Shown here: in pieces, positions 9,750 to 52,035 of the stretch
Position numbering within the stretch: position 1 is the stretch's first letter
Layout of the letters: each line of letters begins with the position of its first letter
From: a virus
Reading direction: 5' to 3' (one strand)
IMG/VR virus record: IMGVR_UViG_3300034415_000120
Length of the DNA: 64,000 nt
Position numbers and translations under genes: made by a program
The notes under the pieces: generated by a model
What the model was told of the DNA's origin: nothing
Seen by the model: the letters and a program-made list of their open reading frames with translations, nothing else
Databases searched by the model: none

Positions 9750-9793
9750 ACAATATATAGTTGCTTAAAATGTTAATATATACAATATATTGT
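9750..9793. promoter_or_regulatory. Pair of AT palindromic boxes ACAATATATAGT / ACAATATATTGT, 32 bp apart
   Basis: Read directly; upstream of the gene at 9845. Confidence 0.45.
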
Positions 9794-9844
9794 GTTAAAT
9801 ATTACATGAAATTGGCATTTCATAGACAAAATTGGAGGTAAAAT

Positions 9845-10405
9845 ATGTTAATTAGAAGTCAAAATGGAACAAAATTAATAGATATGTCTAGTAAAACAAT
9901 ATCAGTCGATAAATCAGGTTCAACTTTACCATATAAAAATGGATATGATGTTAAAATTTTATATGCAAATAGTTCTGTTTGGCTAGGAGAATATGATAGC
10001 AAAGAAAAAGCATTTAAAGTATTGGATATGATTGGCGAAGCACATCATTATTTTGAATCAGGATTTGAGATGGAAGTTTTTCAGATGCCACAAAATGATG
10101 ACGTTAATGTATCTGGAGTGAAATGTAAAGAAAATCCCACATTAACCGCAAATGAAAAATTATTTCTTGATTTGATTAAAGAAGAATATACATATATTGC
10201 AAGAGACAAAGATGGTCTATTGGCGGTTTATCCTAGAAAGCCTGAGAAAAAATTGACATATTGGTTACTTGCAGATAGCCCAAATACTGCAAGAGATTTA
10301 TATACTAGAGCATTAGATGTTGGTTTTGACTTCATTAAATGGGAAGACGAAGAACCTTGGTTAATTGAAAATTTGAAGAAGTTGGAGTTGAAAGATGAAA
10401 AATAG
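9845..10405 (+). CDS. hypothetical protein, paralog A (conserved C-terminal module ..FLD..EY.YI..DK...L.V......FDFIKWEDEEPWLIENLKKLELKDE)
   Basis: Shares about 80 aa of C-terminal similarity, and nucleotide similarity 10330-10400 vs 10745-10815, with the next gene. Confidence 0.5.
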   Translation: MLIRSQNGTKLIDMSSKTISVDKSGSTLPYKNGYDVKILYANSSVWLGEYDSKEKAFKVLDMIGEAHHYFESGFEMEVFQMPQNDDVNVSGVKCKENPTLTANEKLFLDLIKEEYTYIARDKDGLLAVYPRKPEKKLTYWLLADSPNTARDLYTRALDVGFDFIKWEDEEPWLIENLKKLELKDEK

Positions 10406-10820
10406 AGAAAAGTTTGCAAAAGAGATTTTAGATATTGCGTGTGGGGGTGGAGCATTTGCAGTTACAAAGTCAAGTAAAATTACCTCTTGCAATCAGATTA
10501 GCTGTGAGAAATGTATATTTCGTTCTGAAAAAACTTGCAGAATTAAGCGATATGAATGGTCACAATCAGAATATGTAGAGAAGCATACCATCACATTAAG
10601 AGAAAAGAAGTTTCTGGATATACTTTCACCAGAGTACAAATATATTACAAAAGATAAGAACAATGAACTTTATGTACACGATAAAAATTGGGTTTCAAAT
10701 GATAGAGATCATAATATATCAACAAATATTTTTGGTAATATGTTTGATTTTATTAAATGGGAAGATGAAGATCCTTGGTTAATTGAGGATTTGAAAAAAC
10801 TGGAGTTGAAAGATGAATGA
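10395..10820 (+). CDS. hypothetical protein, paralog B (Cys-rich N-terminus + the same C-terminal module)
   Basis: C-terminus FDFIKWEDEDPWLIEDLKKLELKDE; N-terminus CGGGAF...CNQISCEKC. Confidence 0.5.
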   Translation: MKNREKFAKEILDIACGGGAFAVTKSSKITSCNQISCEKCIFRSEKTCRIKRYEWSQSEYVEKHTITLREKKFLDILSPEYKYITKDKNNELYVHDKNWVSNDRDHNISTNIFGNMFDFIKWEDEDPWLIEDLKKLELKDE

Positions 10821-11142
10821 TTTAGATGATTATGAAGAAGATCCATATGACTACTGTTATGAATGTGGTGGATATGGTGATGATTATTATACGGACGAAG
10901 ATGGAGAATTAGTCTGTAGATGTCTTGAATGTCCTATGAATCCTAATTCGTGGGATGATTAATACATATCAAGTAAATTTCTATGGGTGATCACCCAAAT
11001 TATTTCCAAGAACAAAGAAATATTATTTTTTATCGGTCGGTTGCAAACGTCCGATTTACGTAGCATTGCAGAGTTTATAGAAAGGAATTTAGGTAAATTC
11101 TAGGATAAAGTAGTTGTGCAACTCCCTATAAAATAAGGGAAT

Positions 11143-12126
11143 TTGAGTCATTTAGTTGAAAATAATATTTTATCAGAGAATGGATTAAGAGTATTAAGTC
11201 TATTTGATGGTATATCATGCGGTAGAATTGCATTGGATAGAGCTGGGTTTGAAATAAATGATTATTATGCTTATGAGATTGAACAAAATGCAATCAAGAT
11301 AAGTAGATATAATTACCCATCAATTCATCAATGTGGTGATGTATTTGAGGAAGATTTTAGTAAATATGAAGGTATTGATTTGTTGATTGGAGGCAGTCCA
11401 TGCACCTTTTGGTCAAGTTCCAAGTGTTCAAAAACGGCAAAACATAAGAGGGAAGTTAAACCAGAGGGTGATGGATGGAATTTATTTATGGAATATGTAA
11501 GAGCATTACACGAATCTAAACCAAAATATTTTCTATATGAGAATAATTATAGGATTGATGATTCTATACAAGCTGCAATTACAGAAAATTTAGGTGTTGA
11601 ACCTGTTCTTCTCGATAGTCAGTTAATTTCGGCTCAAAGACGCAAGAGATTATATTGGACAAATATTCCAATAAAAGGAGAACCAGAAGATAAAGGAATT
11701 TTAGTAAAGGATGTGATTACAGATGATTATGAACTAATCAAACATTTTGATGATAGGATAAAAAATACATTAGTCAAATGTGAGAATTACATAAAGTATG
11801 ATTTGAGTGGTAAAGGACATTATTCTCAACAGGATAGGATGTATTTTCTTGATAATAAAGCACCAACTGTTCCGAGATGTAGAACTGAAACTAAATTTAA
11901 TGTTTGGTTAGGTGGTGAAACATATAAGAAAACTTGTCCTGTTGAGATAGAAAGACTTCAAACATTACCAGATGGATATACAGAATTTGGTATGAATGAA
12001 AATGGAAGTGTTGTAAAAATGCCTAAGACAAGAAGATTTGAAGCTATTGGAAATGGTTGGACTGTTGATATGATAGCTTGGATATTTAGTTTTATGAAGG
12101 AGAAATATAATGCAGATAACAGCTAA
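11143..12126 (+). CDS. DNA (cytosine-5)-methyltransferase
   Basis: Motif I LSLFDGISCG; PC motif GGSPCTFWSS; ENV-like YFLYENN; motif VIII QRRKRLYW. TTG start. Confidence 0.8.
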   Translation: MSHLVENNILSENGLRVLSLFDGISCGRIALDRAGFEINDYYAYEIEQNAIKISRYNYPSIHQCGDVFEEDFSKYEGIDLLIGGSPCTFWSSSKCSKTAKHKREVKPEGDGWNLFMEYVRALHESKPKYFLYENNYRIDDSIQAAITENLGVEPVLLDSQLISAQRRKRLYWTNIPIKGEPEDKGILVKDVITDDYELIKHFDDRIKNTLVKCENYIKYDLSGKGHYSQQDRMYFLDNKAPTVPRCRTETKFNVWLGGETYKKTCPVEIERLQTLPDGYTEFGMNENGSVVKMPKTRRFEAIGNGWTVDMIAWIFSFMKEKYNADNS

Positions 12127-12976
12127 AAGTTATTTTAGTGGAGCAGGAGGGATGGATTTAGGAATAGAGGAATCTGGAATTAACATAATTGAATCATATG
12201 AGATAGATAAAAAGTGTTGCGATACTCTGAGAAAGAATTTTAAACATCATGTAAATGAAGCGGATATTACACAGATTACCGTTCTTGATCAGAATGACGC
12301 AGATGTATATATTGGTACATTTCCATGCACACGGTATTCAACTATTGCTGATATTTCAGGCACAAGAACAGGAGATGATTTATTTTTACATTTCTTTAGA
12401 CATATTGCTTTGGCTCAACCAGAAATGTATGTAGTAGAAAATGTTCCTGGAATGCTTAAATTTAAAGTAGTTATGGAAGCATTAACAAAACTACCTGATT
12501 ATTATGTAAGAGTTGAATGTCCTGTTAATGCAAATATGTGGCTACCACAAGAAAGAAAACGATTGATTCTAATTGGAAGTAAAAAACCATTTACCAATTT
12601 TGATTATCCTGATTCTCAACCGTTAAGGCTTAAAGATATTATTGAAAAGGATGCTTCGATTGATATTCCACAATATGTATATAATCGCATCAATGGAAAG
12701 TATAGAGATAAACCAATTATTTCAGATCCAGACAATGATGATCTTGCTCCAACTTGTGTAGCACATTACGCAAAAGATAAAGGAACAAGATTGATTAAAG
12801 ACGGACAGAGAATTAGACCATATACAGTAAAAGAATATGCTAGATTACAAGGCTTTCCAGATTGGTTTGAGTTTTGTGGAACAGATAATGATGCTTATAG
12901 ACAAATTGGTAATGCTGTTGCTGTTCCAATGGGACGTTGGATTGGTAAACAGATTGTAAAATATTTTAATTCATAA
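12110..12976 (+). CDS. DNA (cytosine-5)-methyltransferase (second; overlaps the previous by 17 nt)
   Basis: Motif I YFSGAGGMDLG; PC motif GTFPCTRYS; ENV VVENVPGM; QERKRLILIG. Confidence 0.8.
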   Translation: MQITAKSYFSGAGGMDLGIEESGINIIESYEIDKKCCDTLRKNFKHHVNEADITQITVLDQNDADVYIGTFPCTRYSTIADISGTRTGDDLFLHFFRHIALAQPEMYVVENVPGMLKFKVVMEALTKLPDYYVRVECPVNANMWLPQERKRLILIGSKKPFTNFDYPDSQPLRLKDIIEKDASIDIPQYVYNRINGKYRDKPIISDPDNDDLAPTCVAHYAKDKGTRLIKDGQRIRPYTVKEYARLQGFPDWFEFCGTDNDAYRQIGNAVAVPMGRWIGKQIVKYFNS

Positions 12977-13500
12977 TAAGAAAAGGAGAAAACACTATGG
13001 GAATTACAAGCAAACAGACAGGAAAATTCAGAGGAATGATGAGAAAAATCGAGAATGAGCAGCTTAAAATTAAAGCCGATTCCGTAAAACGTAAGAAGAA
13101 AGAAGATAAGAAAAATGCCTGATATTACAATGTGCCGTAGTAGTGACTGCCCTAAACGCAGTCATTGCTACAGGGTACAAGCCAAACCAGATAAATTGCA
13201 GAGTTATTCAGACTTCTCTGCTGAATGTTTTCAATACAATTTCTTGCGATTTTGGAGTATGAGTGAGGAAGTTGATAAGATGAAGGGTTGATTTCAAATG
13301 AGATGGTTAATCAATTATATACGAAGTTGTTTTTGTAAACATGGCTTGGAATTAATTTTTGATACTCAAGTACATGGTGAAAAATTAGATGGAAGTCGTT
13401 ATGAATATCCATTATATCGTGTAAAAACATATCGTTGTAAAAAATGTGGAATGGAGAAGAAATATAAGAGTAACAGTTGAAAAGACTAATGAGGTGAATA

Positions 13501-13809: not shown

Positions 13810-13862
13810 TAAAATTCGAGTTGAAAGAAATCTTTCATAGCATGGATAAATAGGAGGTAATT

Positions 13863-14405: not shown

Positions 14406-14476
14406 AGAACTAAAATGGTGTAAGCAATTCATTAAATGTAGCAGGTTATCAATGTATCATAAGAAAAGGAGAAACA

Positions 14477-14812: not shown

Positions 14813-14981
14813 ATAAATTAACTATGTATATTATATGGATTTTATGTGCAGTAATTTCTATCGGGGGAATGTTAATTACGAAAAATTCTGATACGGTTTG
14901 GTTTATGGTAATTCCTTTTGCGGTAATGTTTGCAGAAGATTTATGGAGTTGAAAAATTTATTTCAAGGAGAGAAATAATAC

Positions 14982-15558: not shown

Positions 15559-15580
15559 TAAATAAATAAAAGGAGATTTA

Positions 15581-17902: not shown

Positions 17903-18475
17903 ATGAGTTATATTATCAAATCGCCAGATGAATTAAAAGATCCATTCTTATGTTATTGTATTTTTCAGAGGTTTATGGAAGAAGCGGGAGAAGATTACAT
18001 TGACTATAACGAGTTAATTGTCAAACCAATACCATTTATATTTTGGTTAAAAGGACGTAAGGAAATTACAAATGAACAGTTAGAAAAGCTTTTGAAAACA
18101 AAATATTTAGAAGAAGTGTTAGAGCAAGAATTATTTCCAAATACATATGGAGAAGCTGAGATTTCACAGAGTAAAGCTTATGTACTGTTAGCTGAATATA
18201 TGTGTCAAATTTCAGAATTTAGACAAAGAGTTTTTGATAGTGTGAATGATAAGGCAGACAGTTTTGAAGATAGTCAATTTTATAAAGATGAAAATGGAAT
18301 TAGTCTTGCTTGTATTATTGATGACGAAGATATGATTGAAACAAAACAGTATAATTTTGATGATTTTAAAAATATGACATTATATGAGTTTAATAAATTA
18401 TCTTATAAAGAACAATTTAATGCAGTAAAGAAATTATCAATTGAGGAAACCGATAGTATTGATAACATATATTAG
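17903..18475 (+). CDS. hypothetical protein (190 aa)
   Basis: ORF with RBS CAGGAGGAATAATTTATG. Confidence 0.5.
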   Translation: MSYIIKSPDELKDPFLCYCIFQRFMEEAGEDYIDYNELIVKPIPFIFWLKGRKEITNEQLEKLLKTKYLEEVLEQELFPNTYGEAEISQSKAYVLLAEYMCQISEFRQRVFDSVNDKADSFEDSQFYKDENGISLACIIDDEDMIETKQYNFDDFKNMTLYEFNKLSYKEQFNAVKKLSIEETDSIDNIY

Positions 18476-18503
18476 ATGAAACACAGGTTTCATGGATAGA
18501 ATA

Positions 18504-18551
18504 ATACTATATATTGTGTACTGATGTTTTAATATACACAATATATAGTAT
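18504..18551. promoter_or_regulatory. Perfect 17-bp inverted repeat ATACTATATATTGTGTA ...14 nt... TACACAATATATAGTAT, containing two 12-bp AT palindromic boxes 32 bp apart
   Basis: Read directly. Related box pairs occur at 9750-9793 and 51993-52035. Confidence 0.5.
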
Positions 18552-18577
18552 AAAATAGAAAGGAGAACACAATATAA

Positions 18578-18727
18578 ATGTGTATTAAATGTACATTTAT
18601 AAAGTGGGAGCATTCTGATTATAACTTTTGCCCTTATTGCGGAGAAAGAATTAAAAGCACATTTGTTCCAAACGTTAAAGATATAACTTCAATCACAAAT
18701 AATCTACATACAATTGAGAAAAGAAGG
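18578..18727 (+). CDS. small Zn-ribbon protein (MCIKCT...CPYCGERI), 49 aa, below the ORF-track cutoff
   Basis: ATG preceded by AAAGGAGAACACAAT; CxxC...CxxC. Confidence 0.4.
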
Positions 18728-18736
18728 TGAATTTGT

Positions 18737-19057
18737 GTGGTATTAAAAGAAAGAGATAGTATAAGTAGTTCAAAAGAATATTATTGCGATTTAACAGAAG
18801 AATTAGATCAATTAGCAGGATTTAATACCACGGAATATCATCGTTATAAACATTATCTAATGTACTTTGAAAATAATTATAATAGATGTGTATATGCTAT
18901 TCGAGTTCCAGGTAGAACAGTTGGAGGTGTGTGGATATATAAAAATAATAGAATATATAAAATTGTTACTGATAATATTTATGTCAAATTTTATCCAGAT
19001 GATTTGGATGATAAGTTGGAGAAGTATATTGGTAAGAAGATTGAATTTGAGAGGTGA
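18737..19057 (+). CDS. hypothetical protein
   Basis: ORF (GTG start). Confidence 0.4.
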   Translation: MVLKERDSISSSKEYYCDLTEELDQLAGFNTTEYHRYKHYLMYFENNYNRCVYAIRVPGRTVGGVWIYKNNRIYKIVTDNIYVKFYPDDLDDKLEKYIGKKIEFER

Positions 19058-19614
19058 GTCAGATGGTTAATTTAATGAACACATGTGTTTTGGTCAAAAC
19101 ACGAAAAGAATATGAAGATATTTTAAATGAAGCTGAAAAGCAGGGATTTCACTGGTATAAAAAAGATGATGGTAAACCATTTGAACAATCCACATTTCCA
19201 GATATTTTAAAATTCTCATCAGATAATATTATTTGTAGAAGAAGTGGAATTTCTTTGGGTTATACTTTCTATGAAGCATCAGAACTCCTCGGCACAAAAG
19301 AAATGACAGCGAGAGAGTTTGCTGAGTGGATTGCAGATATAGGCAAGTGCGGTGAACGTAAATGTGCAGAATGTGTATTGAATAAAATGAATACTGAGTG
19401 TAGCTTTAGTTTATGTATTCCACGCAACTGGAAAGGCAATATTGATGAACTTCTTGAAATTGCGTTATTGAACAGAACTACAGTTTTATCACCAGAAGAG
19501 GAAGCAATTGATACGATTGAAAAATTTATTGAGAATCCAGATCACACAACATTAGACGATGAATTTGTAAATGCGTTGAAGTTTGCGGTGGAGAAGTTAA
19601 AAGAGGTGAAGTAG
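19054..19614 (+). CDS. hypothetical protein (Cys cluster CGERKCAECVLNKMNTEC)
   Basis: ORF with translational coupling. Confidence 0.45.
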   Translation: MSQMVNLMNTCVLVKTRKEYEDILNEAEKQGFHWYKKDDGKPFEQSTFPDILKFSSDNIICRRSGISLGYTFYEASELLGTKEMTAREFAEWIADIGKCGERKCAECVLNKMNTECSFSLCIPRNWKGNIDELLEIALLNRTTVLSPEEEAIDTIEKFIENPDHTTLDDEFVNALKFAVEKLKEVK

Positions 19615-19836
19615 ATGATAAAAATTAGCAAAATTGCCTTTGAAGCATTAAAAGATACGGACGGAAATGCTTCAATAAAACCAGTGGAATGGTGGAGAAA
19701 AAATAAGCTGGCATGTATTTGGTGCATATTGTGTCTACTGGCAGAGATTCCAATAGTAATATTAAGATTTGTGTTTATGGTAATTTGTTTTATTCCACAT
19801 AAAATTTATGAGTATTTAGAAGACATGTCTTTTTAA
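19615..19836 (+). CDS. small membrane protein
   Basis: TM stretch LACIWCILCLLAEIPIVILRFVFMVICFI. Confidence 0.4.
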   Translation: MIKISKIAFEALKDTDGNASIKPVEWWRKNKLACIWCILCLLAEIPIVILRFVFMVICFIPHKIYEYLEDMSF

Positions 19837-19848
19837 GAGGTGAAGTAG

Positions 19849-20301
19849 ATGGAGAGATTAACACTTGAAAATGCTATTAAATACATTAAAGAAGTAGAGC
19901 GAAAGAACAGAATAAACAAAGAGAGAAACACCATCATTATTCCTAACAGTTTTATCGGTAGTAAAGATTGTGCGGATAAATACGGACAAGTTGCTAAATG
20001 GCTAGAAAAACTAAAAGACTATAATGACTTAGAAGAACAAGGATTGTTGTTGAAACTTCCAATACCATTAAACACTACTGTTTATACAATATATACAAAA
20101 CAATGGTGTTATTATGACGATAACTGTATGGAAGATATAGAATATAAATGTATGAATGGGGAGTTTTGCGAAAATCAAAAAGTAAGACACTATCTTCATA
20201 TTGAAAAATTCAGTGTTCCAATGATTAACTTTATAAATAAAACTGTATTTTTAACCCGTGAAGAAGCCGAAAATAGATTGAAGGAGTTAGAAAATGAATA
20301 A
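19849..20301 (+). CDS. hypothetical protein
   Basis: ORF with RBS AGAGGTGAAGTAGATG. Confidence 0.45.
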   Translation: MERLTLENAIKYIKEVERKNRINKERNTIIIPNSFIGSKDCADKYGQVAKWLEKLKDYNDLEEQGLLLKLPIPLNTTVYTIYTKQWCYYDDNCMEDIEYKCMNGEFCENQKVRHYLHIEKFSVPMINFINKTVFLTREEAENRLKELENE

Positions 20302-20509
20302 TGTGTATCTAGTAACAAGACAGAAAGATAATGTATTGGTTTCAGTTATAAGAAATAAATTAGATGATACTTATTCTTTTGTAAACTTGACAAAAGGGCA
20401 TATATGCACTTGTAAATTTAATACCATTGAAGATGCGGTAAAAGATATGCAGATTAAAAAAGAAAATGGTGAGATTATAGATTATTTTGAGGTGAAAAAT
20501 GATAAGTAA
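20294..20509 (+). CDS. hypothetical protein
   Basis: ORF. Confidence 0.4.
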   Translation: MNNVYLVTRQKDNVLVSVIRNKLDDTYSFVNLTKGHICTCKFNTIEDAVKDMQIKKENGEIIDYFEVKNDK

Positions 20510-20777
20510 TTTATTTGGAAGTTTATTCGAAGGAATTGGAATAATAACAAGTGTATTACTTGTTTATTCTGTTACTTTATTTCTTTATTCAAAATTTGAT
20601 ATTTGGCGTAAAAATAAATGTAAAATTAAATTGCTTTGTCGTCCACATGTGTATGAGATTAATTGGCTTTTTGAAGAAGATGGAGAATGTGAATTAAAAT
20701 GTAAAAAATGTGGTAAAACAAAACATATGTATATTGATGTAAAGTCATTTGAAAAATTTTTAATAAAGAGCAAATAG
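20499..20777 (+). CDS. membrane-anchored Zn-ribbon protein
   Basis: N-terminal TM (GIGIITSVLLVYSVTLFLY) plus CRPH...CKKCGK. Confidence 0.4.
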   Translation: MISNLFGSLFEGIGIITSVLLVYSVTLFLYSKFDIWRKNKCKIKLLCRPHVYEINWLFEEDGECELKCKKCGKTKHMYIDVKSFEKFLIKSK

Positions 20778-20788
20778 GGAGTTAGAAA

Positions 20789-21052
20789 ATGGATCGAAGA
20801 AATAGAAAGTATTATTTAGTGGAATTACCATATTGTCACAATGCATGTGTGAAAAAATTAAAAGAAATTAGAACTGTAAAAATTTCAAATCCTTATGATT
20901 TTGATAAAGATAAGGAATATGGATATGTAAATTGTTTAATTGGATTTTCCAATGATGTAGAAAATTCTGTTCTTACAGTTTTAAATTCAAAATGGGAATA
21001 TGGTTATAAAGCAAAGTATAGAGAAATTACTAAAGAAATGATTGGACATTAA
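20789..21052 (+). CDS. hypothetical protein
   Basis: ORF with RBS GGGAGTTAGAAAATG. Confidence 0.4.
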   Translation: MDRRNRKYYLVELPYCHNACVKKLKEIRTVKISNPYDFDKDKEYGYVNCLIGFSNDVENSVLTVLNSKWEYGYKAKYREITKEMIGH

Positions 21053-21097
21053 AGTTAAAACGGCAGTTTCAAGGACAAAAAATGAAAGGTGCGTAAA

Positions 21098-21604
21098 ATG
21101 AAAGTTGGAATAACAGGACACAGAAATCAAAGATTAGGTTTGCCAGAAGATGAAACAGATGAGAAATGGACTCCAATTCAGTTTTGGATTATAGACGAAT
21201 TGAGTAAATTTATAAAGACTTGTGCAGATAATAATGAACCACTTGATTTATATACAGGAATGGCTTCTGGGAGTGATATTGCATTTGCGATCGCAGGAGT
21301 GTTAATGCATTACATAAATAGCATTAAATTACACTGTATTCTTCCTTGTAAAGATTATAACTCAACACATAAATATTATAAATTTTTAAAGCTAAAAGCA
21401 ACTGAATGGGTTGAATTATCAGATAAATTTTATAAAGGCTGTGATAACGTAAGAGATCAATACATAGTTGATAAGTGTGATGTTTTGCTAGCAATTTGGG
21501 ATGGTAATAAGTCTGGTGGTGTTTGGTCTACCATTCGTAAAGCTCAAAAAGCAGGAAAGAGAATTATTTATTGTCCAAAAGAAGTACTTGAATTTCACAA
21601 CTGA
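21098..21604 (+). CDS. YpsA-like SLOG-family (DUF1273-like) protein, putative nucleotide-binding
   Basis: N-terminus MKVGITGHRNQRLGL, internal TGMASGSDIAFAIAG and DVLLAIWDGNKSGG resemble B. subtilis YpsA (MKVLAITGYKP.., ISGQLGVE.., DGLLLLYD..) as recalled from memory. ATG 21098 has the better RBS spacing. Confidence 0.4.
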   Translation: MKVGITGHRNQRLGLPEDETDEKWTPIQFWIIDELSKFIKTCADNNEPLDLYTGMASGSDIAFAIAGVLMHYINSIKLHCILPCKDYNSTHKYYKFLKLKATEWVELSDKFYKGCDNVRDQYIVDKCDVLLAIWDGNKSGGVWSTIRKAQKAGKRIIYCPKEVLEFHN

Positions 21605-21612
21605 AATTATTT

Positions 21613-21807
21613 ATGGAGAATAAGATGAGTGAAACAGTTAAAGCAAGGAATAGAAATACAATGAAAGAAGCAAAATCAAAAGCCGAAAGAATTGGATTTG
21701 TACCTTCTGCGTGTTTGGAATGTCTGATGTATCAAGCTGGATTAAGACCAGGTACAAATAATCATTGTAGTAAATGTGTCGATGGAATAGGTATATTTCG
21801 TGGATAA
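21613..21807 (+). CDS. small hypothetical protein
   Basis: ORF. Confidence 0.35.
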   Translation: MENKMSETVKARNRNTMKEAKSKAERIGFVPSACLECLMYQAGLRPGTNNHCSKCVDGIGIFRG

Positions 21808-21841
21808 AATGTTGTTTTCATGGATAAGAAAGGAAAAATCT

Positions 21842-22744
21842 ATGCCAATAAAAGATGATTTAGGAACTAGAATGAAAACTTTTTATGAGGAAATTCCAAA
21901 AACAAAACTTATGCGCCGCTGCCCAGTTGCTATCAGAATTGACGGAAAATCATTTCATACATTTACAAGAAAATTTGAGAAGCCATTTGATGAAGTTTTA
22001 ATTGAATCTATGCAGAAAACAATGAAATATCTTTGTGAAAATATTCAAGGATGTGTATTGGGATATACCCAGTCTGATGAGATTACATTGATTCTTGTTG
22101 ATTATAAGAAATTAAATTCTTCTGCATGGTTTGATTATGAAGTTCAGAAAATGACTTCTATATCAGCTTCTATGGCAACACTAGCCTTCAATGATTTTTT
22201 TAAAAAAGGTATAACAAAAGAAAATAGTGCCTTTACTGATGAATGGTTGGACAATGGAGATTTTAATCCAAAATATAAAGATGAAGAATTAAATAAATTA
22301 TGGATAACTCATAAAAGAGCATCCGAAAAAGGTGCAATGTTTGACGCACGTTGCTTTAATATTCCGAAAGAAGAAGTCACAAATCTTATTTACTGGCGAC
22401 AATTAGACGCTTCTCGTAATTCAATTCAAATGGTAGGTCGAGCTAATTTTTCTCATAAAGAACTTCAAAATAAATCATGCAACCAGATTCAAGATATGTT
22501 AATGGAACAGAAAGGTATTAACTGGAACGATCTTCCTATATATCAAAAAAGAGGAAGTTGTTGTATTAAAATTAAAGATAAAATTGATGAAGTGATGGTA
22601 AACGAACAACAAGAATTTGGAGAAGATAAGGTAACAAAGATAGTTTCCATAGAAAAGAGTCATTGGATCATTGATAAAGAAATTCCTATTTTTAAAGGTG
22701 ATAATAGAAAATATATTGATAAGTTGATTAATGTAGGAGAATAA
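21842..22744 (+). CDS. Thg1-like protein (tRNA-His guanylyltransferase family, 3'-5' nucleotidyltransferase)
   Basis: VAIRIDGKSFHTFTRKFEKPFDE matches the Thg1 motif ([24 protein letters not shown]). CVLGYTQSDEITLIL matches IVIAYGQSDEYSFVF. LIYWRQLDASRNS matches YLSWRQADCHINN. Both catalytic Asp are present. The alternative start at 21800 is less favoured; an RBS precedes 21842. Confidence 0.8.
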   Translation: MPIKDDLGTRMKTFYEEIPKTKLMRRCPVAIRIDGKSFHTFTRKFEKPFDEVLIESMQKTMKYLCENIQGCVLGYTQSDEITLILVDYKKLNSSAWFDYEVQKMTSISASMATLAFNDFFKKGITKENSAFTDEWLDNGDFNPKYKDEELNKLWITHKRASEKGAMFDARCFNIPKEEVTNLIYWRQLDASRNSIQMVGRANFSHKELQNKSCNQIQDMLMEQKGINWNDLPIYQKRGSCCIKIKDKIDEVMVNEQQEFGEDKVTKIVSIEKSHWIIDKEIPIFKGDNRKYIDKLINVGE

Positions 22745-25636: not shown

Positions 25637-26758
25637 GTGGAAAGAGCATTTAAGTATAGAATTTATCCAACAAAGAAACAACAAAAGTTAATTCAGAAAA
25701 CATTTGGATGTTGTCGATTTGTATATAATTATTATCTCAATATGAGGAAAGAATCATATGAAAAAGATAAAATATCTGTAACTTATAATATGTGTTCAAA
25801 AGATATGACAAGTTTGAAGAAACAATTGGAATGGTTGAAAGAACCAGATAAAGACGCTTTGCAAAAATCATTGAAAGATTTAGATATGGCATATCAGAAG
25901 TTCTTTAAAGAACATACAGGATATCCAAAATTCAAATCTAAAAAGACCAGATATAAGTCTTATAGAACTAGCTGTACAAATAACAATATCAGATATGATA
26001 ACAGAAAGATCAAACTTCCAAAAATCGGATGGATTAAAACCAAGGATAAACAAATTCCACAAGGTAAAATATTGAATGCTACAATTTCACAAGAACCAAA
26101 TGGACATTATTACTGTTCATTATGTTGTTCTGATGTAGAATTTCTACAATTCACAAAAACAGATAAAAATATTGGTATTGACTTAGGAATCTGTGATTTT
26201 GCAATATTTTCTGATGGAACGAAAATTGAGAATCCAAGATTTTATGAAAAATCAGAAAACAAACTCGTTAAATTACAACGTGAATTATCAAGAAAAACAA
26301 TTGGTAGTAATCGTTGGGATAAAGCAAGAATTAAAGTTGCAAATTTACAAAAACATATTTCAAATCAACGTAAAGATTTTTTACAAAAATTAACCACAGA
26401 TATTGTAAAGAATTACGATGTGATCTGCATTGAGGATTTAGATATTATATCTATGAAAGAAACAGATTCTACTATTCGTAATAAACGAGTTGGTGATGTT
26501 TCATGGTCAGAGTTCAGAAGAATGCTTACATATAAAACTCAATGGTATGGAAAAGAATTATCTGTCATAGGTAGATTCTATCCATCTTCTCAGATTTGTC
26601 ATATTTGTGGAAATAAGGATGGGAGAAAATCAGAAGATATTAGATTCTGGACTTGTCCTAATTGTAAATCTGAATTAGACAGAGATATAAACGCAGCAAT
26701 AAATATTCTCAATGAAGGTTTGAGAATAAGAACCGTAGGAACTACGGGGATAGCCTAG
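25637..26758 (+). CDS. tnpB: TnpB (IS200/IS605 OrfB family RNA-guided endonuclease), apparently intact
   Basis: N-terminus MERAFKYRIYPTKKQQKLIQKTFGCCRFVYNYYL. RuvC-I GIDLGI; RuvC-II CIEDLDI; Zn finger CHICGN...CPNCKS; RuvC-III DRDINAAINIL. Confidence 0.85.
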   Translation: MERAFKYRIYPTKKQQKLIQKTFGCCRFVYNYYLNMRKESYEKDKISVTYNMCSKDMTSLKKQLEWLKEPDKDALQKSLKDLDMAYQKFFKEHTGYPKFKSKKTRYKSYRTSCTNNNIRYDNRKIKLPKIGWIKTKDKQIPQGKILNATISQEPNGHYYCSLCCSDVEFLQFTKTDKNIGIDLGICDFAIFSDGTKIENPRFYEKSENKLVKLQRELSRKTIGSNRWDKARIKVANLQKHISNQRKDFLQKLTTDIVKNYDVICIEDLDIISMKETDSTIRNKRVGDVSWSEFRRMLTYKTQWYGKELSVIGRFYPSSQICHICGNKDGRKSEDIRFWTCPNCKSELDRDINAAINILNEGLRIRTVGTTGIA

Positions 26759-28664: not shown

Positions 28665-29120
28665 ATGAAAGAGATTTTAGGTAATAACCTTGAGCAATTC
28701 TTTTTTGTACTGGATTATCCAAAAGAATATGGAGCAGTATGTACATACAAAAGTAATAGATATGAAGTTTGGTTAATGGATGATGAAATATTTAATATGA
28801 TTTCAAATATGTCAGAAGAAGATTTTGTTAAATTTGCTGGTGAAGATGCTTGGTGGAGAAGTAGTAGTGGTAGTGTATTATATTCACTTGATAAAGGAGA
28901 AGTAACAATCAATAATCATAAAATGATTGGATGGATTAGAAAACCTTGGGATGAAGAAATATCAACAGATATTAAATATTCATCATTAACAGAATATTTA
29001 TGTGAATTTATTGGAGCTTCTACACCTCATAATGTTGTAGCTTGCGCAATGGATTTGGCTAAATTTAATCATTTGATAATGGGCGGATTGTTTAAAAAAT
29101 ATGAACCAGTGGAGGATTAA
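28665..29120 (+). CDS. hypothetical protein
   Basis: ORF. Confidence 0.45.
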   Translation: MKEILGNNLEQFFFVLDYPKEYGAVCTYKSNRYEVWLMDDEIFNMISNMSEEDFVKFAGEDAWWRSSSGSVLYSLDKGEVTINNHKMIGWIRKPWDEEISTDIKYSSLTEYLCEFIGASTPHNVVACAMDLAKFNHLIMGGLFKKYEPVED

Positions 29121-29396: not shown

Positions 29397-29615
29397 CATA
29401 AAATATTTCTTTCATGTGATATGTTAAATCACTAATATTTATGCGGTTTCAGCGTCCCAAAACCACATGATTCTATGTATTCTAGCTGTATCATCTCTTT
29501 CAAAAGTCAGTAAAATCAATGATTTTTAAGACTACGATGAAAGAAATAATTGATAGAAGAAAGGAATACATAGTCTCATGAGATAAGCTGCGCAACACTA
29601 TTATGGTGCGAGACT

Positions 29616-30842: not shown

Positions 30843-31859
30843 TTGCTGAGTAAAGCCAATAGTATAGAAGAATTATTAGAAAGTTGCCCTAAGAATCAAA
30901 CAATTGGAGATAACCTGGTTAGGGCATGGTCAAAGATTAATAGTAGTAAGTATAAAAATATTCTATGTAGCATCTCAGGTGGTTCTGATAGTGATGTAAT
31001 GTTAGACATTGTGTGGAGATGCGATAAAGACAATAAAGTTACATATGTGTGGTTTGATACAGGTCTTGAATATCAAGCTACAAAAGATCATTTGAAATAT
31101 CTTGAAGAGAAATATAACATAGAGATTCATCCATATAAAGCAATTAAACCAATTCCTTCGTCCTGTAAAAAATATGGACAACCATTCATTTCTAAGCAAG
31201 TCAGCGAATTTATCCAACGATTACAAGCACATAATTTCAAGTGGGAAGATGAAGATTTTGATACCTTGATGAAAAAATATCCAAAATGTAAATCTGCACT
31301 AGCATGGTGGTGTAATGCAAAAGGCAATGGAAGTAGTTTTAATATTTCTCGTAATAAATATCTGAAAGAATTTATGGTTGCAAATCCACCCACGTTTAAA
31401 ATATCAAATAAGTGTTGTAAATATGCTAAGAAAGATGTTATGCATAAATGTATTTCAGAGTCCAATTATGATCTTGACATATATGGTGTAAGAAAAGCAG
31501 AAGGTGGTTCAAGAGCAACTGCGTATAAATCATGCTTTGATGAAACAGATGCAGGATGTGATAATTATAGACCTTTATTCTGGTATAAAGATTCCGACAA
31601 GATTGATTATGAAGGAGCTTATTTTGTTGAGCATAGTAATTGTTACACTGAATATGGATTAAAACGTACTGGATGCGCTGGTTGTCCATTTGGTAGAGAT
31701 TTTGAATATGAATTAGAAGTTATTCGGAAATATGAATCGAAATTATTTAAAGCGGTGAATAATATATTTGGAGAATCTTATGAGTATACAAGAAGATATA
31801 GAGAATTTTGTAAACAGATGAAGGAGAAAGAAAAGGATAACAATGAAATGTGTAAGTAA
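30843..31859 (+). CDS. PAPS reductase-family PP-loop protein (phage 'phosphoadenosine phosphosulfate reductase'-like)
   Basis: PP-loop SISGGSDSD; GVRKAEGGSRA motif; C-terminal Cys cluster CAGCPFG. TTG start. Confidence 0.65.
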   Translation: MLSKANSIEELLESCPKNQTIGDNLVRAWSKINSSKYKNILCSISGGSDSDVMLDIVWRCDKDNKVTYVWFDTGLEYQATKDHLKYLEEKYNIEIHPYKAIKPIPSSCKKYGQPFISKQVSEFIQRLQAHNFKWEDEDFDTLMKKYPKCKSALAWWCNAKGNGSSFNISRNKYLKEFMVANPPTFKISNKCCKYAKKDVMHKCISESNYDLDIYGVRKAEGGSRATAYKSCFDETDAGCDNYRPLFWYKDSDKIDYEGAYFVEHSNCYTEYGLKRTGCAGCPFGRDFEYELEVIRKYESKLFKAVNNIFGESYEYTRRYREFCKQMKEKEKDNNEMCK

Positions 31860-36121: not shown

Positions 36122-36475
36122 ATGATAGAAAAATACCAATACAATACAAAATATAAAAATGAGCATTTTGATGAGTACAGAAAAGAATGCATAAAGTCAT
36201 ATGGTTCGCCATGTATGCTTGATTTATCGAAAGAATGTGACGTAAAAATGTTTCATAATCTTGTAGGTATTGATGAATCAAGAATACCAGATGCATATAA
36301 TATGAAAGTATTTATGGTGATTCCTTGTAAATGGCACAAGAAAAAGCGAATAAATAAGAAATTGCTTAAAAAACATGGACATCCTAATTATGTTCAACAA
36401 AGAAGTATTAGAAAAGGTATATGTTTTACAACATATCCAGATGGAACATTTGAATTTATTAAAAAGGATATTTGA
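36122..36475 (+). CDS. hypothetical protein
   Basis: ORF. Confidence 0.45.
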   Translation: MIEKYQYNTKYKNEHFDEYRKECIKSYGSPCMLDLSKECDVKMFHNLVGIDESRIPDAYNMKVFMVIPCKWHKKKRINKKLLKKHGHPNYVQQRSIRKGICFTTYPDGTFEFIKKDI

Positions 36476-36663
36476 TTATGAAAGATATTAAAATTGCAAG
36501 ATTTGTAGAATTAATCATTAAAGGCAAAACAGCAATAGAAGCTGCGAGAGAATCCGGTATATCACATTTACTAATGGATGAAGTATTGACAGAATTATCA
36601 AAAGAAGATTATGAATCTGATTGGGATAAATTAGCAAAAGCGATTATGGGAGAATGCGTATGA
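36472..36663 (+). CDS. small HTH-like protein (IIKGKTAIEAARESGIS)
   Basis: Helix-turn-helix-like pattern; speculative. Confidence 0.35.
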   Translation: MIMKDIKIARFVELIIKGKTAIEAARESGISHLLMDEVLTELSKEDYESDWDKLAKAIMGECV

Positions 36664-38724: not shown

Positions 38725-39161
38725 ATGAAACTTTCGTTTCATGTGCTTCTCAAACCCAGTGTTTATAAGGGTTTTGGGACACGAAATTTAAAAAATGCTT
38801 GAAAATCAAGTAAAATCAACAAATTACAGATTTTTTAAAAATCAATCGCTGAAAAGCCTTGATACATAAGGGTTTCTGAGTTTAAAAAACGAAAAAATGT
38901 AAATGTGTTAAATAGTTGAAATCCAAATTTCATCGGAGAAATAAATCTCATAGATTCAATCGAATCGAATTTTCCAAATAAATTAAAACTGAATAGAGAA
39001 ATAAAAAATGGGTGGTTAGCAGCATACCCTTGGGATTTTGTACCCATAAACCACTGTTGACATAGAATTTATCTTATAGATTTAATTCCATGTTCCGTCC
39101 GATAGGGCGTTTATCATAAACAAATTAAAAATTAATAAACAATTATTAAGGAGAAAAACAC
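38725..39161. promoter_or_regulatory. Largest intergenic region (~435 bp, AT-rich) upstream of the replication module. Contains TTGACA (39056), AAAATCAA repeats (38789-38840) and inverted AAAATC/GATTTT elements. Candidate early promoter/operator or origin.
   Basis: Repeats read directly; no function has been shown. Confidence 0.35.
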
Positions 39162-46197: not shown

Positions 46198-46199
46198 GG

Positions 46200-48785: not shown

Positions 48786-51130
48786 TGGAAGAGAAAATTT
48801 TAAAATTTGAATGTGCTTTGGATAGAATTATCTATCCAAAGTATACCAAAAAAGTACAATCTGGTGACTTTGCGATATTTAGTATGAGAATAACTAAATG
48901 GTTAGATAATCAAATTGATGGCGTTGAAGTTATCAAACTCAAAGGAACAACGTGTACACTTGAATATGGAACTACATATAAAATATTTTGTAAATTAGCA
49001 GAAACTCACGAAATATATGGAGATACGTATGGATTAATTTATATTAGTAAATGTATTGATATTTCAAGTAAAGATAAACAAAAAGAATTTTTGAAAAATG
49101 TTTTGAATGAAAATTTAGTAGAAAAGCTTTTTGATGAATATGATGACGTTATTAAATTACTTGAAAATAGAGATGTTAAATCTCTAATGAAGATAAAAGG
49201 AATAGGAAATCAAGTAGCTTTAAGAATGATTGATGAATACGAGGAATCTAAAGATTATAGCTCTATTTATATGGAATTAGGTCAGTTGGGATTTACACAT
49301 ACATTTATTAAAAAGCTTGTAGATTTTTATAAATCACCAGATACAGTAATTGATATTGTTAAAAATAATCCATATGATTTGTTGAGAGTTGATGGTATTG
49401 GTTTCAAAAAGGCTGATGAAGTAGCTTGTAAAGTTGGAATAACTCAATATGATGTTAGAAGAATCAAAGGATTTTTATTATATTATTTGAATGATCAAGG
49501 AGAAGCAGGAAGAAGTTATTTAAATTATCAAGATTTAATGAAAGCCTTATATGATACATTGGGATTTGTACCAGAAGAAATAATAAATACCACAGCGAAA
49601 CAAATGATTGATAATAAGGATGTAGTTGTACTTGATAATGGTTCTAAAATAGCATTGAAAAAATTCTACGATTTGGAGAAAAATATTATGAATGAATTAT
49701 TTAGACTTCAAATTGGACTTGTAAAAGTAGTAGAAAATGATTCAAACAAACTCAATAGTATTCATGATGATTATATTCCTAAGTCATTCAACATAGGAAA
49801 TTGGGAAACAATTACAGAAAATGTAGAAGAGAAACAAGGATTTATGTTTACTGATGAACAAAGAGCCGCAATTAAACTTAGCCTGGATAATCATGTTATG
49901 GCTTTAACTGGTGGAGCAGGATCAGGTAAAACAAGCACAGCAAATGGAATATGTTCATTATATAGTGGGTATAGTATTTTAGCTTGTGCGTTATCAGGAA
50001 AAGCCAGTGTGAGAATTACCGAAGCTACGGGACTTTCAGCTAGTACAATTCATAGAGCTTTAGGATATCAAAATGGTGAATTTATGTTCAACAAAGATAA
50101 TAAATTAGCAGTTGATATTGTTTTAATTGATGAAGCAACTATGATTAATGGTGCATTATTCTTATCATTGTTAGAAGCTATCCCAACAGGTGCGAAAGTA
50201 ATTATCATGGGTGATGTACAACAGCTTACACCAATTGGTAATTGTCAAGTATTTGCTGATATTCTTGATAGTAATGTTTTACCAGTAGTAAAATTAAGTA
50301 AACCACATAGACAAGCTTTGAGAAGCGGTATTATTCCAACTTCAATTAAAATTGCCAACCAAGAACAAATCTTTGATGGAAATTATACAGGAAATGTGAT
50401 TATTGGAGAATTAGAAGATATGGAATTGGATATTTCTGGAAAAGGAAATGATGAATCTATATCTGATAAGATTATTAAACATTTTCAAATTGAATTAGAA
50501 AAATTCCATGATATTATGGAAGTTCAGATTTGTGTTCCTATGAGATTACGTGGAGAATTATCTTGCTATAATCTAAATTCTAAAATTCAATCTATTTATA
50601 ATCCCAAATTAAGTAATGGTAACGAAATTGAAATTTTCTTAGAAAAGAAAAAAGACGAAGCAAAAAAATATATTATTAGAGCAGGAGATAAGGTTATTAA
50701 TACAAAAAATAATTACAAGTGTATCAATTCAGAAGGTGACACAACTCCTGTATTCAATGGAAATATGGGAATTGTAAAAGAAATTGAAAAGAATGGAATG
50801 TGTACAATAGATTTTATTGGTATTGGAGAAGTAATCTTTACAAAATCCGATTGTAAAAATCTTGAGTTAGGATATGCATGTACCGTACATAAACTTCAAG
50901 GATCTGGATTCTGCTCAACAATTGTTGGATTGGATAATAGCAGTTACATAATGAATAATTCAGAATTACTTTATACGGCTATCACCAGAGCAAAAAAATA
51001 CTGTGTTCTCATCGCTAACAATTATGCTGTTGTTAAATCTATTCAGACCAAAGAAGTTAAAACTAAGCAAACATTTTTAAAAGATATGTTACTTGAAAAT
51101 GCAAAAAGATTAAAAGAAAAGGAGAATTAA
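48785..51130 (+). CDS. SF1 RecD/Dda-like ATP-dependent DNA helicase
   Basis: Walker A LTGGAGSGKTS; Walker B VLIDEATMI; C-terminal motif YACTVHKLQGSGF (TVHKSQGSE-like). Confidence 0.8.
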   Translation: MEEKILKFECALDRIIYPKYTKKVQSGDFAIFSMRITKWLDNQIDGVEVIKLKGTTCTLEYGTTYKIFCKLAETHEIYGDTYGLIYISKCIDISSKDKQKEFLKNVLNENLVEKLFDEYDDVIKLLENRDVKSLMKIKGIGNQVALRMIDEYEESKDYSSIYMELGQLGFTHTFIKKLVDFYKSPDTVIDIVKNNPYDLLRVDGIGFKKADEVACKVGITQYDVRRIKGFLLYYLNDQGEAGRSYLNYQDLMKALYDTLGFVPEEIINTTAKQMIDNKDVVVLDNGSKIALKKFYDLEKNIMNELFRLQIGLVKVVENDSNKLNSIHDDYIPKSFNIGNWETITENVEEKQGFMFTDEQRAAIKLSLDNHVMALTGGAGSGKTSTANGICSLYSGYSILACALSGKASVRITEATGLSASTIHRALGYQNGEFMFNKDNKLAVDIVLIDEATMINGALFLSLLEAIPTGAKVIIMGDVQQLTPIGNCQVFADILDSNVLPVVKLSKPHRQALRSGIIPTSIKIANQEQIFDGNYTGNVIIGELEDMELDISGKGNDESISDKIIKHFQIELEKFHDIMEVQICVPMRLRGELSCYNLNSKIQSIYNPKLSNGNEIEIFLEKKKDEAKKYIIRAGDKVINTKNNYKCINSEGDTTPVFNGNMGIVKEIEKNGMCTIDFIGIGEVIFTKSDCKNLELGYACTVHKLQGSGFCSTIVGLDNSSYIMNNSELLYTAITRAKKYCVLIANNYAVVKSIQTKEVKTKQTFLKDMLLENAKRLKEKEN

Positions 51131-51133
51131 TAT

Positions 51134-51658
51134 ATGTCAAGTATTTATGAACTTACAGGAGAATATCTGGAACTTATGGATATGTTAGAAGATGAGGAAA
51201 TTGATGAGCAAACAATCATTGATACACTTGAAGCATTGGACGGAGAAATAGAAAATAAAGCAGACAACTACGCTAAGATTATCCGATCTCTTGAATCTGA
51301 CATTGAGGGAATTTCAAAAGAGAATAATAGATTAGCATCAAGAAAAAAAACATATGAAAATAGAATCAAGTGGTTAAAACAAAATCTTGAAATGTGTATG
51401 AGAACCATTGGAAAGAAAAAATTTACAACAGATTTGTTCTCATTTAGCATTCAGAAAAATGGTGGAAAGCGCAAACTTACAATTGATGTTGATGTAGAAA
51501 ATATTCCAGAGGAATATAGAATTAAACAACCTGATGCTGTTGATGGAGAAAAGCTGAGAGATTATTTAAAGGAAAATGGATTAGAAGGACAAGATGGATC
51601 ACTCAATTGTGAATGGTGTCACTTAGAACCACAGAGCGAAAGTTTGAGAATTAGATAA
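51134..51658 (+). CDS. Siphovirus Gp157-like protein
   Basis: N-terminus MSSIYELTGEYLELMDMLEDEEIDEQTIIDTLEALDGEIENKADNYAKII matches the Gp157 family start pattern. Confidence 0.5.
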   Translation: MSSIYELTGEYLELMDMLEDEEIDEQTIIDTLEALDGEIENKADNYAKIIRSLESDIEGISKENNRLASRKKTYENRIKWLKQNLEMCMRTIGKKKFTTDLFSFSIQKNGGKRKLTIDVDVENIPEEYRIKQPDAVDGEKLRDYLKENGLEGQDGSLNCEWCHLEPQSESLRIR

Positions 51659-51692
51659 CTTTTATTTTATAAAGTTTAAAGGAGTATGAGAT

Positions 51693-51962
51693 ATGACATT
51701 TGATAATTTACTTGATTTACAACCTAATGTTAGGTTAGCAGATTTAATTCAATTATTCTTAATGGGGTATGATGATAAAATTTATGTAAATGTGATTATA
51801 CATGAAGCAAACTTAAAAGAACCAATTGAATTATCTGAGGTAAGAATTATAGATAGTGCTTTGAAACCGTATTATGAATATAAAATAGCATATTTAGAAG
51901 ATTCATATTATGAAACTCCTGGAAGCATGATGACAATAAATCTAACAAAAGAAGATGATTAA
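51693..51962 (+). CDS. hypothetical protein
   Basis: ORF. Confidence 0.4.
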   Translation: MTFDNLLDLQPNVRLADLIQLFLMGYDDKIYVNVIIHEANLKEPIELSEVRIIDSALKPYYEYKIAYLEDSYYETPGSMMTINLTKEDD

Positions 51963-51992
51963 ATGAAAGCAGAATTTCATGGCAAAAATGAT

Positions 51993-52035
51993 ACTATATA
52001 TAGTGTTTTGAATAGTTATAAATACTATATATAGT
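51993..52035. promoter_or_regulatory. Pair of perfect palindromes ACTATATATAGT, 31 bp apart
   Basis: Read directly. Preceded at 51964-51979 by a TGAAA-N6-TTTCA site, the same arrangement as at 18477-18551. Confidence 0.45.

Follow-up and report, generated by a model that had tools for sequence, protein, structure and literature searches.

NrdR, a bacterial sensor of dATP/ATP that governs the genes for ribonucleotide reductase, is a repressor that combines a Zn-ribbon with an ATP-cone (PMC9110341) and has been reported to be near-universal in bacteria (PMC4009431). In the presence of ATP and dATP, the NrdR tetramer binds two DNA boxes about three helical turns apart, with one Zn-ribbon pair on each box and each box kinked; ATP-only NrdR forms larger oligomers that do not bind DNA (PMC9110341). 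The boxes normally overlap promoters or the site of the polymerase (PMC9110341). The consensus of the 16-bp box, as quoted from Rodionov and Gelfand in PMC4009431, is acaCwAtATaTwGtg. Its highly conserved positions are C4, A6, A8, T9, T11, and G13, the A/T content between C4 and G13 must reach at least 63%, and the linker between paired boxes is 15-16 bp long and free in sequence (PMC13584703; PMC12051234). The A/T-rich core is required for the sharp kink in the DNA (PMC13584703). When four NrdR proteins were studied in vitro, binding was good at linkers of 14-17 and 24-27 bp and about 100-fold worse between those two ranges (PMC12051234). Here, we describe three pairs of such boxes in a 64,000-nucleotide stretch of viral DNA (IMG/VR record IMGVR_UViG_3300034415_000120), which is referred to below as the window. 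Judged by sequence comparison, the three loci are probably canonical NrdR operators that put the downstream phage gene blocks under the control of the host NrdR. They would represent a known kind of element, the NrdR operator, at an unusual place, namely, a phage genome in which two of the three sites precede genes other than those for ribonucleotide reductase (RNR). No description of phage-borne NrdR boxes was found in the literature searched, the coverage of which was incomplete.

Paired NrdR-type boxes in the window, in bacteria, and in other viral contigs

The 12-mer ACWATATATWGT occurs in six exact copies in the 64 kb, at 9750, 9782, 18506, 18538, 51993, and 52024, compared with an expectation of 0.06, and six or more copies were found in 0 of 100 shuffles. 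None of the copies is solitary: the six make up three pairs, whose start-to-start distances are 32, 32, and 31 bp. When one mismatch was tolerated, a single extra site was found, at 57159, which is unpaired and lies within a gene. At the second locus, positions 18504-18520 and 18535-18551 form a 17-nt inverted repeat with 100% complementary arms and 14 nt between them. These results bear out a previous reading of the letters alone (the sequence-only reading), which had described three loci with paired 12-bp palindromes 31-32 bp apart, one of them a perfect 17-bp inverted repeat. The same reading had proposed a dimer-of-dimers operator, which was right in kind, since the NrdR tetramer occupies a pair of boxes at a distance of about three turns (PMC9110341).

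With two more bases at either end, the six boxes become 16-mers of the form (a/c)(t/c)ACWATATATWGT(g/a)(t/..). All six have the conserved base at C4, A6, A8, T9, T11, and G13 and are 100% A/T at positions 5-12, and the linkers measure 16, 16, and 15 bp. When the six positions were required in both boxes at a distance of 31 or 32 bp, matches at 12/12 positions were found only at loci 1 to 3 (0.01 expected). The same six positions in a single-box scan gave 24 matches in this AT-rich window, which is uninformative alone. The linker is free in sequence, as seen both in the low linker information across 43 distinct phage pairs and at locus 3, which is conserved in contig L083 and in MT835469, with identical boxes and a diverged linker (for MT835469, 32/32 box positions and 9/15 linker positions are identical). 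MT835469 is the nearest record, an unannotated 176-kb "Bacteriophage sp." from human faeces that is ~90% identical to the window in mosaic blocks. Every sequence property of NrdR operators that could be checked was found at the three loci. A possible third box or half-box at locus 2, ACACAATATAAATGTG, lies 31 bp after box 2, overlaps the start codon at 18578, and is complementary to box 1; it is weak and could be due to chance. The coordinates of all of these features are given in Table 1.

Table 1. Boxes, linkers, TGAAA-N6-TTTCA motifs, and downstream gene blocks at the three loci of the window
Feature	Coordinates	Strand	Sequence or content
Locus 1 box 1	9748..9763	no strand	ATACAATATATAGTTG; 6/6 conserved positions, 100% A/T at positions 5-12
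Locus 1 linker	9764..9779	no strand	16 bp, inside the 15-16 bp typical for NrdR sites
Locus 1 box 2	9780..9795	no strand	ATACAATATATTGTGT; 6/6 conserved positions
Locus 1 motif	9807..9822	+	TGAAATTGGCATTTCA; 13 nt after box 2; followed by Shine-Dalgarno (SD) sequence GGAGG 9834-9838 and ATG 9845
Locus 1 block	9845..12976	+	Two phrog_22292 proteins of unknown function, small Cys-rich open reading frame (ORF), two DNA methyltransferases
Locus 1 DNA methyltransferases	11143-12126, 12110-12976	+	
Locus 2 motif	18477..18492	+	TGAAACACAGGTTTCA; directly after stop of 17903-18475; 13 nt before box 1 12-mer
Locus 2 box 1	18504..18519	no strand	ATACTATATATTGTGT; 6/6 conserved positions; left arm of 17-bp inverted repeat
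Locus 2 linker	18520..18535	no strand	16 bp
Locus 2 box 2	18536..18551	no strand	ACACAATATATAGTAT; 6/6 conserved positions; right arm of 17-bp inverted repeat
Locus 2 possible weak third box or half-box	18567..18582	no strand	ACACAATATAAATGTG; only 4/6 conserved positions
Locus 2 block	18578..22744	+	50-aa Zn-ribbon ORF, small proteins of unknown function
Locus 2 block, further genes		+	YpsA/SLOG protein 21089-21604; Thg1-like tRNA-His guanylyltransferase 21800-22744
Locus 3 motif	51964..51979	+	TGAAAGCAGAATTTCA; after stop of 51693-51962; 13 nt before box 1 12-mer
Locus 3 box 1	51991..52006	no strand	ATACTATATATAGTGT; 6/6 conserved positions; same in MT835469 at 78836
Locus 3 linker	52007..52021	no strand	15 bp; holds TTGAAT, possible -35
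Locus 3 box 2	52022..52037	no strand	ATACTATATATAGTAC; TATAGT 52030-52035, possible -10
Locus 3 block	52060..62675	+	Opens with Zn-ribbon gene 52060-52449, then small ORFs; Pfam matches in the next two rows
Locus 3 block genes		+	LigA 54023-55981; thymidylate synthase 56255-57133; kinase-like 57144-57725; 5'-deoxynucleotidase 57715-58305
Locus 3 block RNR genes		+	NrdD 59006-61114; NrdG activase 62118-62675

The exact pair pattern was searched for in one genome per bacterial species. The matches listed span Clostridia, Bacilli, Fusobacteria, Gammaproteobacteria, Nitrospirae, and other groups, and among them at least 18 of the 46 full-pair loci adjoin RNR genes. The ORFs next to these 46 loci included 13 NRDD, 5 Ribonuc_red_lgC (class I/II large subunits), and 14 ATP-cone matches, as well as TSCPD, glutaredoxin, and radical-SAM proteins. 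Since RNR genes are few per genome, this finding indicates that the pattern specifically marks the NrdR regulon.

The spacing of the boxes was analyzed in IMG/VR viral contigs by fixing the first box as ACTATATATWGT, varying the gap, and counting the contigs with a pair. Linkers of 14-17 bp were found in at least 120 contigs and linkers of 24-27 bp in 81, compared with 1 contig for linkers of 19-22 bp. This distribution mirrors the two windows of NrdR binding in vitro (PMC12051234). The start-to-start distances peak at 31 bp (82 pairs) and 32 bp (46 pairs). A 10-bp periodicity of spacings points to a protein that bridges two sites on one face of the DNA rather than to a promoter or an RNA hairpin. 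In total, the paired arrangement with NrdR-type helical phasing is present in at least about 200 viral contigs. The contigs with linkers of 24-27 bp (L323-L401) have one extra helical turn, as in Streptococcus. Two box arrays of another kind were also observed: nine boxes, several of them ~47 nt apart, at 4523-4897 of L042, and five boxes exactly 20 nt apart at 7229-7309 of L350, a contig from a giant-virus metagenome-assembled genome. These arrays are probably tandem repeats unrelated to the NrdR pairs.

A profile hidden Markov model (HMM) of NrdR was built from a genuine Clostridiaceae NrdR found at locus L126 and two further NrdR sequences. No NrdR gene was found by tblastn, phmmer, or HMM searches of the window, the 176-kb MT835469, and 2.6 Mb of phage loci; the HMM matched only the ATP-cones of NrdD in phage sequence. 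Since the phage sequence searched yielded no NrdR, the binder would be the NrdR of the host.

Gene blocks behind the pairs and a possible mechanism

All genes of the window lie on the + strand, with a G+C content of ~30% and strong SD sites. The window covers the region of a large phage devoted to replication and nucleotide metabolism. Encoded here are a helicase, two DNA methyltransferase regions, a Sak4-like protein, a DnaB-like helicase, a primase, a DHH phosphoesterase, a DNA polymerase (861-aa ORF), a RecD2-like helicase, and Gam, as well as the NAD-dependent ligase LigA and the other nucleotide-metabolism proteins listed for locus 3 in Table 1. Locus 3 stands at the head of a ligA-thyA-nrdD-nrdG module. 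No NrdR site was found directly before nrdD (59006), and no convincing + strand terminator was found in a scan between the genes of the locus 3 block. In four related contigs (L106, L079, L249, and L278), an ATP-cone ORF, presumed to be nrdD, is located 3-10 kb downstream of a pair and on the same strand, and in L106 ligA comes directly after the pair. By this comparison, locus 3 fits classical regulon logic despite its distance from the RNR gene. For 66 pair instances from other phage contigs, most of the first four downstream genes are small and lack annotation; the genes with matches include those for LigA, dCMP deaminase, isochorismatase, Lar, a T7 gp5.9-like protein, and an antirepressor, and none of them is an RNR gene.

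The sequence-only reading had the downstream blocks begin at 9845, 18578, and 52052. The starts at 9845 and 18578 (both ATG) were confirmed, but the third start probably has to be moved. The frame of the Zn-ribbon gene (52051-52449) opens after a TGA at 52051-52053 and has no ATG, GTG, or TTG start; translation probably begins at ATT 52060, ~10 nt after the SD sequence AAAAGGGG. In relatives, ATT or ATC is kept at this place, and the lengths given by gene callers range from 88 to 169 aa. The gene may have a noncanonical start under translational control. The second gene of the locus 3 block also differs in a close relative, in which it encodes Gad1, a Gabija anti-defence protein (L083 3747-4655, corresponding to ~79.3-80.2 kb of MT835469; PF25705, E = 3e-65); at this place, a different ORF, of 104 aa, is found in the window.

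Under the proposed mechanism, NrdR loaded with ATP and dATP would contact both boxes through its two Zn-ribbon pairs, from one face of the helix, and would introduce a kink into the DNA, and ATP-only oligomers would leave the phage operators unbound. Bound NrdR would block RNA polymerase by occluding an overlapping promoter with its -35 in the linker and its -10 in box 2, as at locus 3. Alternatively, it would act as a roadblock to read-through from upstream genes. Because RNA polymerase would be blocked, the downstream genes would be off when dATP is plentiful or the dATP/ATP ratio is high, and they would be released when deoxynucleoside triphosphates (dNTPs) are drained, e.g., by phage DNA replication. 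Locus 3 would thereby control the phage ligase, thymidylate synthase, and nrdDG module, as in the classical regulon, and loci 1 and 2 would extend NrdR control to DNA methyltransferases and small early-type genes.

Several other features of the window were noted. An ORF of the TnpB/IS605 type (7799-9025), with OrfB_IS605 and Cas12f1-like TNB domains, lies within the replication region and is placed differently from its 68%-identical counterpart in MT835469. A second transposase-like ORF (25637-26758; phrog_506) is found in the same region, and a PAPS-reductase-like protein is encoded at 30843-31859. The tightly packed genome has three long noncoding gaps, at 61115-61495 (381 nt; between nrdD and the next ORF), 38725-39161 (437 nt), and 29397-29615 (219 nt), and none of the three had a match in Rfam. 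Positions 1-63 hold the 3' part of a tRNA gene cut by the edge of the window (Rfam RF00005, 30.2 bits). ARAGORN found no complete tRNA in the window.

Exchange of pairs and the TGAAA-N6-TTTCA motif

The pairs were compared among related phages. At locus 1, contig L403, which lacks the pair, is 98.5% identical to the window from 9808 onward and unrelated upstream. The junction at locus 2 was found in four states among 22 relatives: the window has a pair plus the Zn-ribbon gene; in L462, the pair immediately precedes the conserved next gene; five contigs have a degenerate pair followed by a different gene; and in the fourth state, there is no pair. Ten contigs form a group with the same upstream gene, pair, and motif but with a different downstream gene in each. 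Since the pairs are gained, lost, and swapped among relatives, they appear from these alignments to behave as optional cassettes of ~63 bp that are exchanged among related gut phages. The sequence-only reading had tied its proposal to conservation of the boxes in related genomes, and the outcome is mixed. The pairs of loci 1 and 2 are missing in the nearest relative, but that of locus 3 is retained, and more distant relatives have the locus 2 pair at the corresponding junction.

A second element, TGAAA-N6-TTTCA, is present in 17 copies in the window compared with 0.55 expected, spanning 4357-62396 and including copies at 13822, 22982, 27876, 32591, 36094, and 53546. In the form (a/t)TGAAA-N6-TTTCAt, it is nearly always located between a stop codon and the next SD sequence, and its own TGA is often that stop. 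Its sequence is conserved, not covarying, and 20-nt stretches that contain it fold weakly (-3 to -6 kcal/mol). The locus 3 copy, TGAAAGCAGAATTTCA, is conserved in MT835469. Homology with L403 and MT835469 starts exactly at the locus 1 motif, and homology breakpoints between relatives fall at the TGAAA motif.

This motif had been linked to two of the pairs in the sequence-only reading, a link that was upheld: loci 2 and 3 have it at an offset of 13 nt, and the arrangement recurs in unrelated phage contexts. The arrangement at locus 1 is mirrored, with the motif after the pair, again at 13 nt. The GAAA-N6-TTTC core lies within 60 nt of 26 of 72 distinct phage pairs, at the same offset in 20 of the 26. 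The motif may precede or follow the pair, and the 13 nt in between show no conservation. Near bacterial sites, it was found in 1 of 43 cases, at a different offset. A sigma-A promoter, a CRP/FNR-type site, and a cre site were considered as identities for the motif and rejected, since its spacing and its position before the SD sequence do not fit these elements. Possibilities for its role are a 5'-proximal stabilizing hairpin, a processing site, or a recombination junction.

Alternative explanations and known systems

A number of findings speak against control of these blocks by host NrdR. None of the 55 relatives of the gene downstream of locus 1 has the locus 1 pair, and the nearest relatives lack that of locus 2; these two pairs could be recent and have little functional importance. 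Loci 1 and 2 have no downstream RNR gene, and in Escherichia coli as well as Pseudomonas aeruginosa, paired boxes were found only at RNR operons (bioRxiv 10.1101/2025.03.28.645925). At locus 3, nrdD is 7 kb away, and co-transcription is inferred solely from the lack of terminator-like sites. The promoter elements that overlap the boxes of loci 1 and 2 are weak, with poor -35 candidates, and across the 43 distinct phage pairs no conserved -35 signal was found in the linker. Relatives that lack the pair have just the TGAAA motif and an SD sequence at the same junctions, indicating that a promoter is not required there. Finally, the search for nrdR covered 64 kb of this phage genome, and the gene may lie elsewhere in it; some gut phages have been reported to carry nrdR (PMC10294663).

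Two further explanations keep the boxes as protein-binding sites. A dimeric phage regulator, either a small helix-turn-helix (HTH) protein or a Zn-ribbon protein encoded just behind locus 2 or 3, could autoregulate early blocks, the likeness to NrdR boxes being coincidence or mimicry. The first gene after loci 2 and 3 does encode a CxxC...CxxC protein, a motif found in only ~9% of window ORFs, and small Cys-rich genes often come after pairs in other contigs. We nevertheless regard this explanation as very unlikely, because the same motif and spacing adjoin RNR genes across bacterial phyla and pairs are found in phages with unrelated downstream genes. The small HTH protein (36472-36663) that the sequence-only reading had put forward as a binder is disfavored on the same grounds, the motif being the bacterial NrdR box. 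A phage Zn-ribbon protein as an NrdR mimic was likewise rejected for locus 3: the NrdR HMM matched no Zn-ribbon ORF of the window, and the AlphaFold2 (AF2) model of the locus 3 protein (pLDDT 81.6) showed a generic Zn-ribbon likeness in the PDB, with no match at E <= 0.001 and no resemblance to NrdR. By HMM and AF2 model, no linked phage gene had a product like the DNA-binding domain of NrdR. Homologues of the locus 3 protein are confined to similar phages and are unannotated, and the more distant ones have no pair upstream of their genes. Titration in trans would instead have multicopy phage operators soak up host NrdR, derepress the host RNR, and raise dNTPs, with a secondary role in cis. 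The phage boxes have a perfect consensus and are stronger than many deviating native sites (PMC13584703), several pairs per genome are common (three in the window, and two within ~5 kb in L063, L263, L271, L286, and L310), and pairs are gained and lost irrespective of the following gene. Infection by the pneumococcal phage SpSL1 strongly induces the host NrdR regulon (PMC6755750), an effect that dNTP drain alone could also explain. However, the pairs are almost always just before a start codon, with a median of 47 nt from the end of box 2 to an SD-preceded start codon among oriented, nonredundant phage instances, a position unneeded for a pure decoy. Moreover, locus 3 is at the head of the phage's own nrdDG module, and MT835469 has one canonical pair in 176 kb. 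Titration is compatible with the anatomy of the sites but is not needed for their consistent position before start codons, and it is unlikely to be the primary role.

The remaining explanations dispense with a repressor site. The pairs could form a constitutive promoter family, read by host sigma-A or a phage factor, in which the boxes serve as -10 or UP-like elements. This reading draws on their location in rare intergenic gaps before gene blocks, on a pair ~20 nt before a tRNA gene (L108/L111), on the consensus TTGACA-17-TATAGT/TATATT that closely follows the pair in L010 and in one more contig, and on TTGAAT-16-TATAGT at locus 3 (linker and box 2), a modest 9/12 sigma-70 match. Sigma-70-like matches in the window are, however, no commoner than in shuffles, so promoter and terminator scans say little. 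Palindromes duplicated at 31-32 bp misfit a -35/-10 geometry, the linker is little conserved, and the 10-bp periodicity indicates a bridging protein on one helix face. As a stand-alone explanation, the "strong early promoter family" of the sequence-only reading was therefore dropped, and a purely constitutive promoter is highly improbable; since NrdR boxes normally overlap promoters (PMC9110341), a promoter at the pair is compatible with an NrdR operator, not exclusive of it. No phage RNA polymerase or sigma factor that could read such a family was found among the large ORFs, and the 766-aa ORF at 856-3156 had no Pfam, PHROG, or PDB sequence match. Abutting 16-bp boxes, TTGCAATATATAGTCT and TGACAATATATAGTCT (linker 0), were observed at 28719-28775 of MT835469 (L002), ~1.2 kb upstream of the position of the window's left end, where this noncanonical arrangement overlaps a perfect TTGACA-17-TATAAT promoter. 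A nucleic-acid structure, i.e., an RNA hairpin acting in termination, processing, or stability or, at mosaic junctions, a DNA cruciform or hotspot of recombination, is extremely unlikely. Loci 2 and 3, if transcribed, have predicted folds of -19.4 and -17.0 kcal/mol (z = -5.6 and -4.5), and loci 1 and 2 coincide with mosaic breakpoints. Yet locus 1 folds no better than shuffled sequence (z = -0.3), specific bases rather than pairing are conserved, nonpalindromic boxes also occur as direct repeats (8 versus 17 inverted), a spacing periodicity of ~10 bp is meaningless for a hairpin loop, and it is the TGAAA motif, rather than the boxes, to which the breakpoints map. We judge the folding of loci 2 and 3 to be a by-product of the repeated palindromes. 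Rfam covariance models gave no match at the loci, the sole hit in the window being the truncated tRNA at 1-63, and a tRNA scan found nothing at the three loci.

A broader proposal, which is tentative and on balance doubtful, is that a large clade of gut phages with Bacillota-type hosts has co-opted NrdR as a general timing or feedback switch through portable ~63-bp cassettes, combined with NrdR titration. The cassettes would then front arbitrary blocks, including DNA methyltransferases, ligase, and thymidylate synthase, as well as gad1 (anti-Gabija) in MT835469. Such genes would fire only at low dNTP, brought about by phage replication or by dNTP-depleting host defences, and the multicopy operators would also titrate NrdR off host RNR promoters. 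In that case, paired NrdR boxes would not be specific to RNR genes, contrary to the current view of NrdR as an RNR-specific repressor. NrdR would be a host sensor that phages plug into, tying phage expression to the dNTP pool. This is relevant to the timing of replication and of anti-restriction or anti-defence genes in large phages, to the response of these phages to dNTP-depletion defences, and to plans for NrdR as an antimicrobial target. The exactly defined operator would also offer a sequence-only handle for predicting regulated transcription units in uncultured gut phages.

Among known phage systems, operators of the lambda OR1-OR2 type are bound by a phage-encoded HTH repressor, as a cooperative dimer of dimers at a spacing of ~24 bp. 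The loci described here likewise have two dyad-symmetric sites at a putative promoter and a predicted dimer-of-dimers binder but differ in having the sequence and the 31-32-bp spacing of a host Zn-ribbon repressor and no linked repressor gene. The PeSL (promoter-early stem-loop) cassettes of T4-type phages, attributed to Arbiol, Comeau and Krisch 2010, reportedly bound variable gene cassettes. Common to both are short conserved regulatory sequences that include a stem-loop and stand at the boundaries of variable cassettes, where homology between relatives breaks. Here, however, the conserved junction element is TGAAA-N6-TTTCA, and the regulatory element is a putative host repressor operator, not a phage early promoter.

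Among bacterial systems, NrdR-type boxes before non-RNR genes have been considered for the dnaA gene of Shewanella and the topA gene of Pseudomonas, as single boxes of doubtful function (bioRxiv 10.1101/2025.03.28.645925). The phage sites share the non-RNR setting, in a block for DNA metabolism, but are perfect pairs at canonical spacing. The closest systems are the NrdR operators of bacterial RNR genes, such as nrdAB and nrdDG of Listeria monocytogenes, nrdHIEF and nrdDG of E. coli, and nrdRJ of Streptomyces coelicolor. Unlike these, the phage sites lie on a genome without NrdR in the part searched, two of the three precede non-RNR genes, and 7 kb separate locus 3 from the nearest RNR gene, which does not adjoin it. 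They are also optional cassettes that differ between ~90% identical phages, and they can stand at a 13-nt offset from the phage TGAAA-N6-TTTCA motif, which is nearby in 26/72 phage versus 1/43 bacterial cases. In their anatomy, the two agree: both have partially palindromic 16-bp boxes with an A/T-only core, two boxes joined by a nonconserved linker of 15-16 bp and set about three turns apart from center to center, and a position just upstream of a start codon, and the locus 3 block includes nrdD and nrdG.

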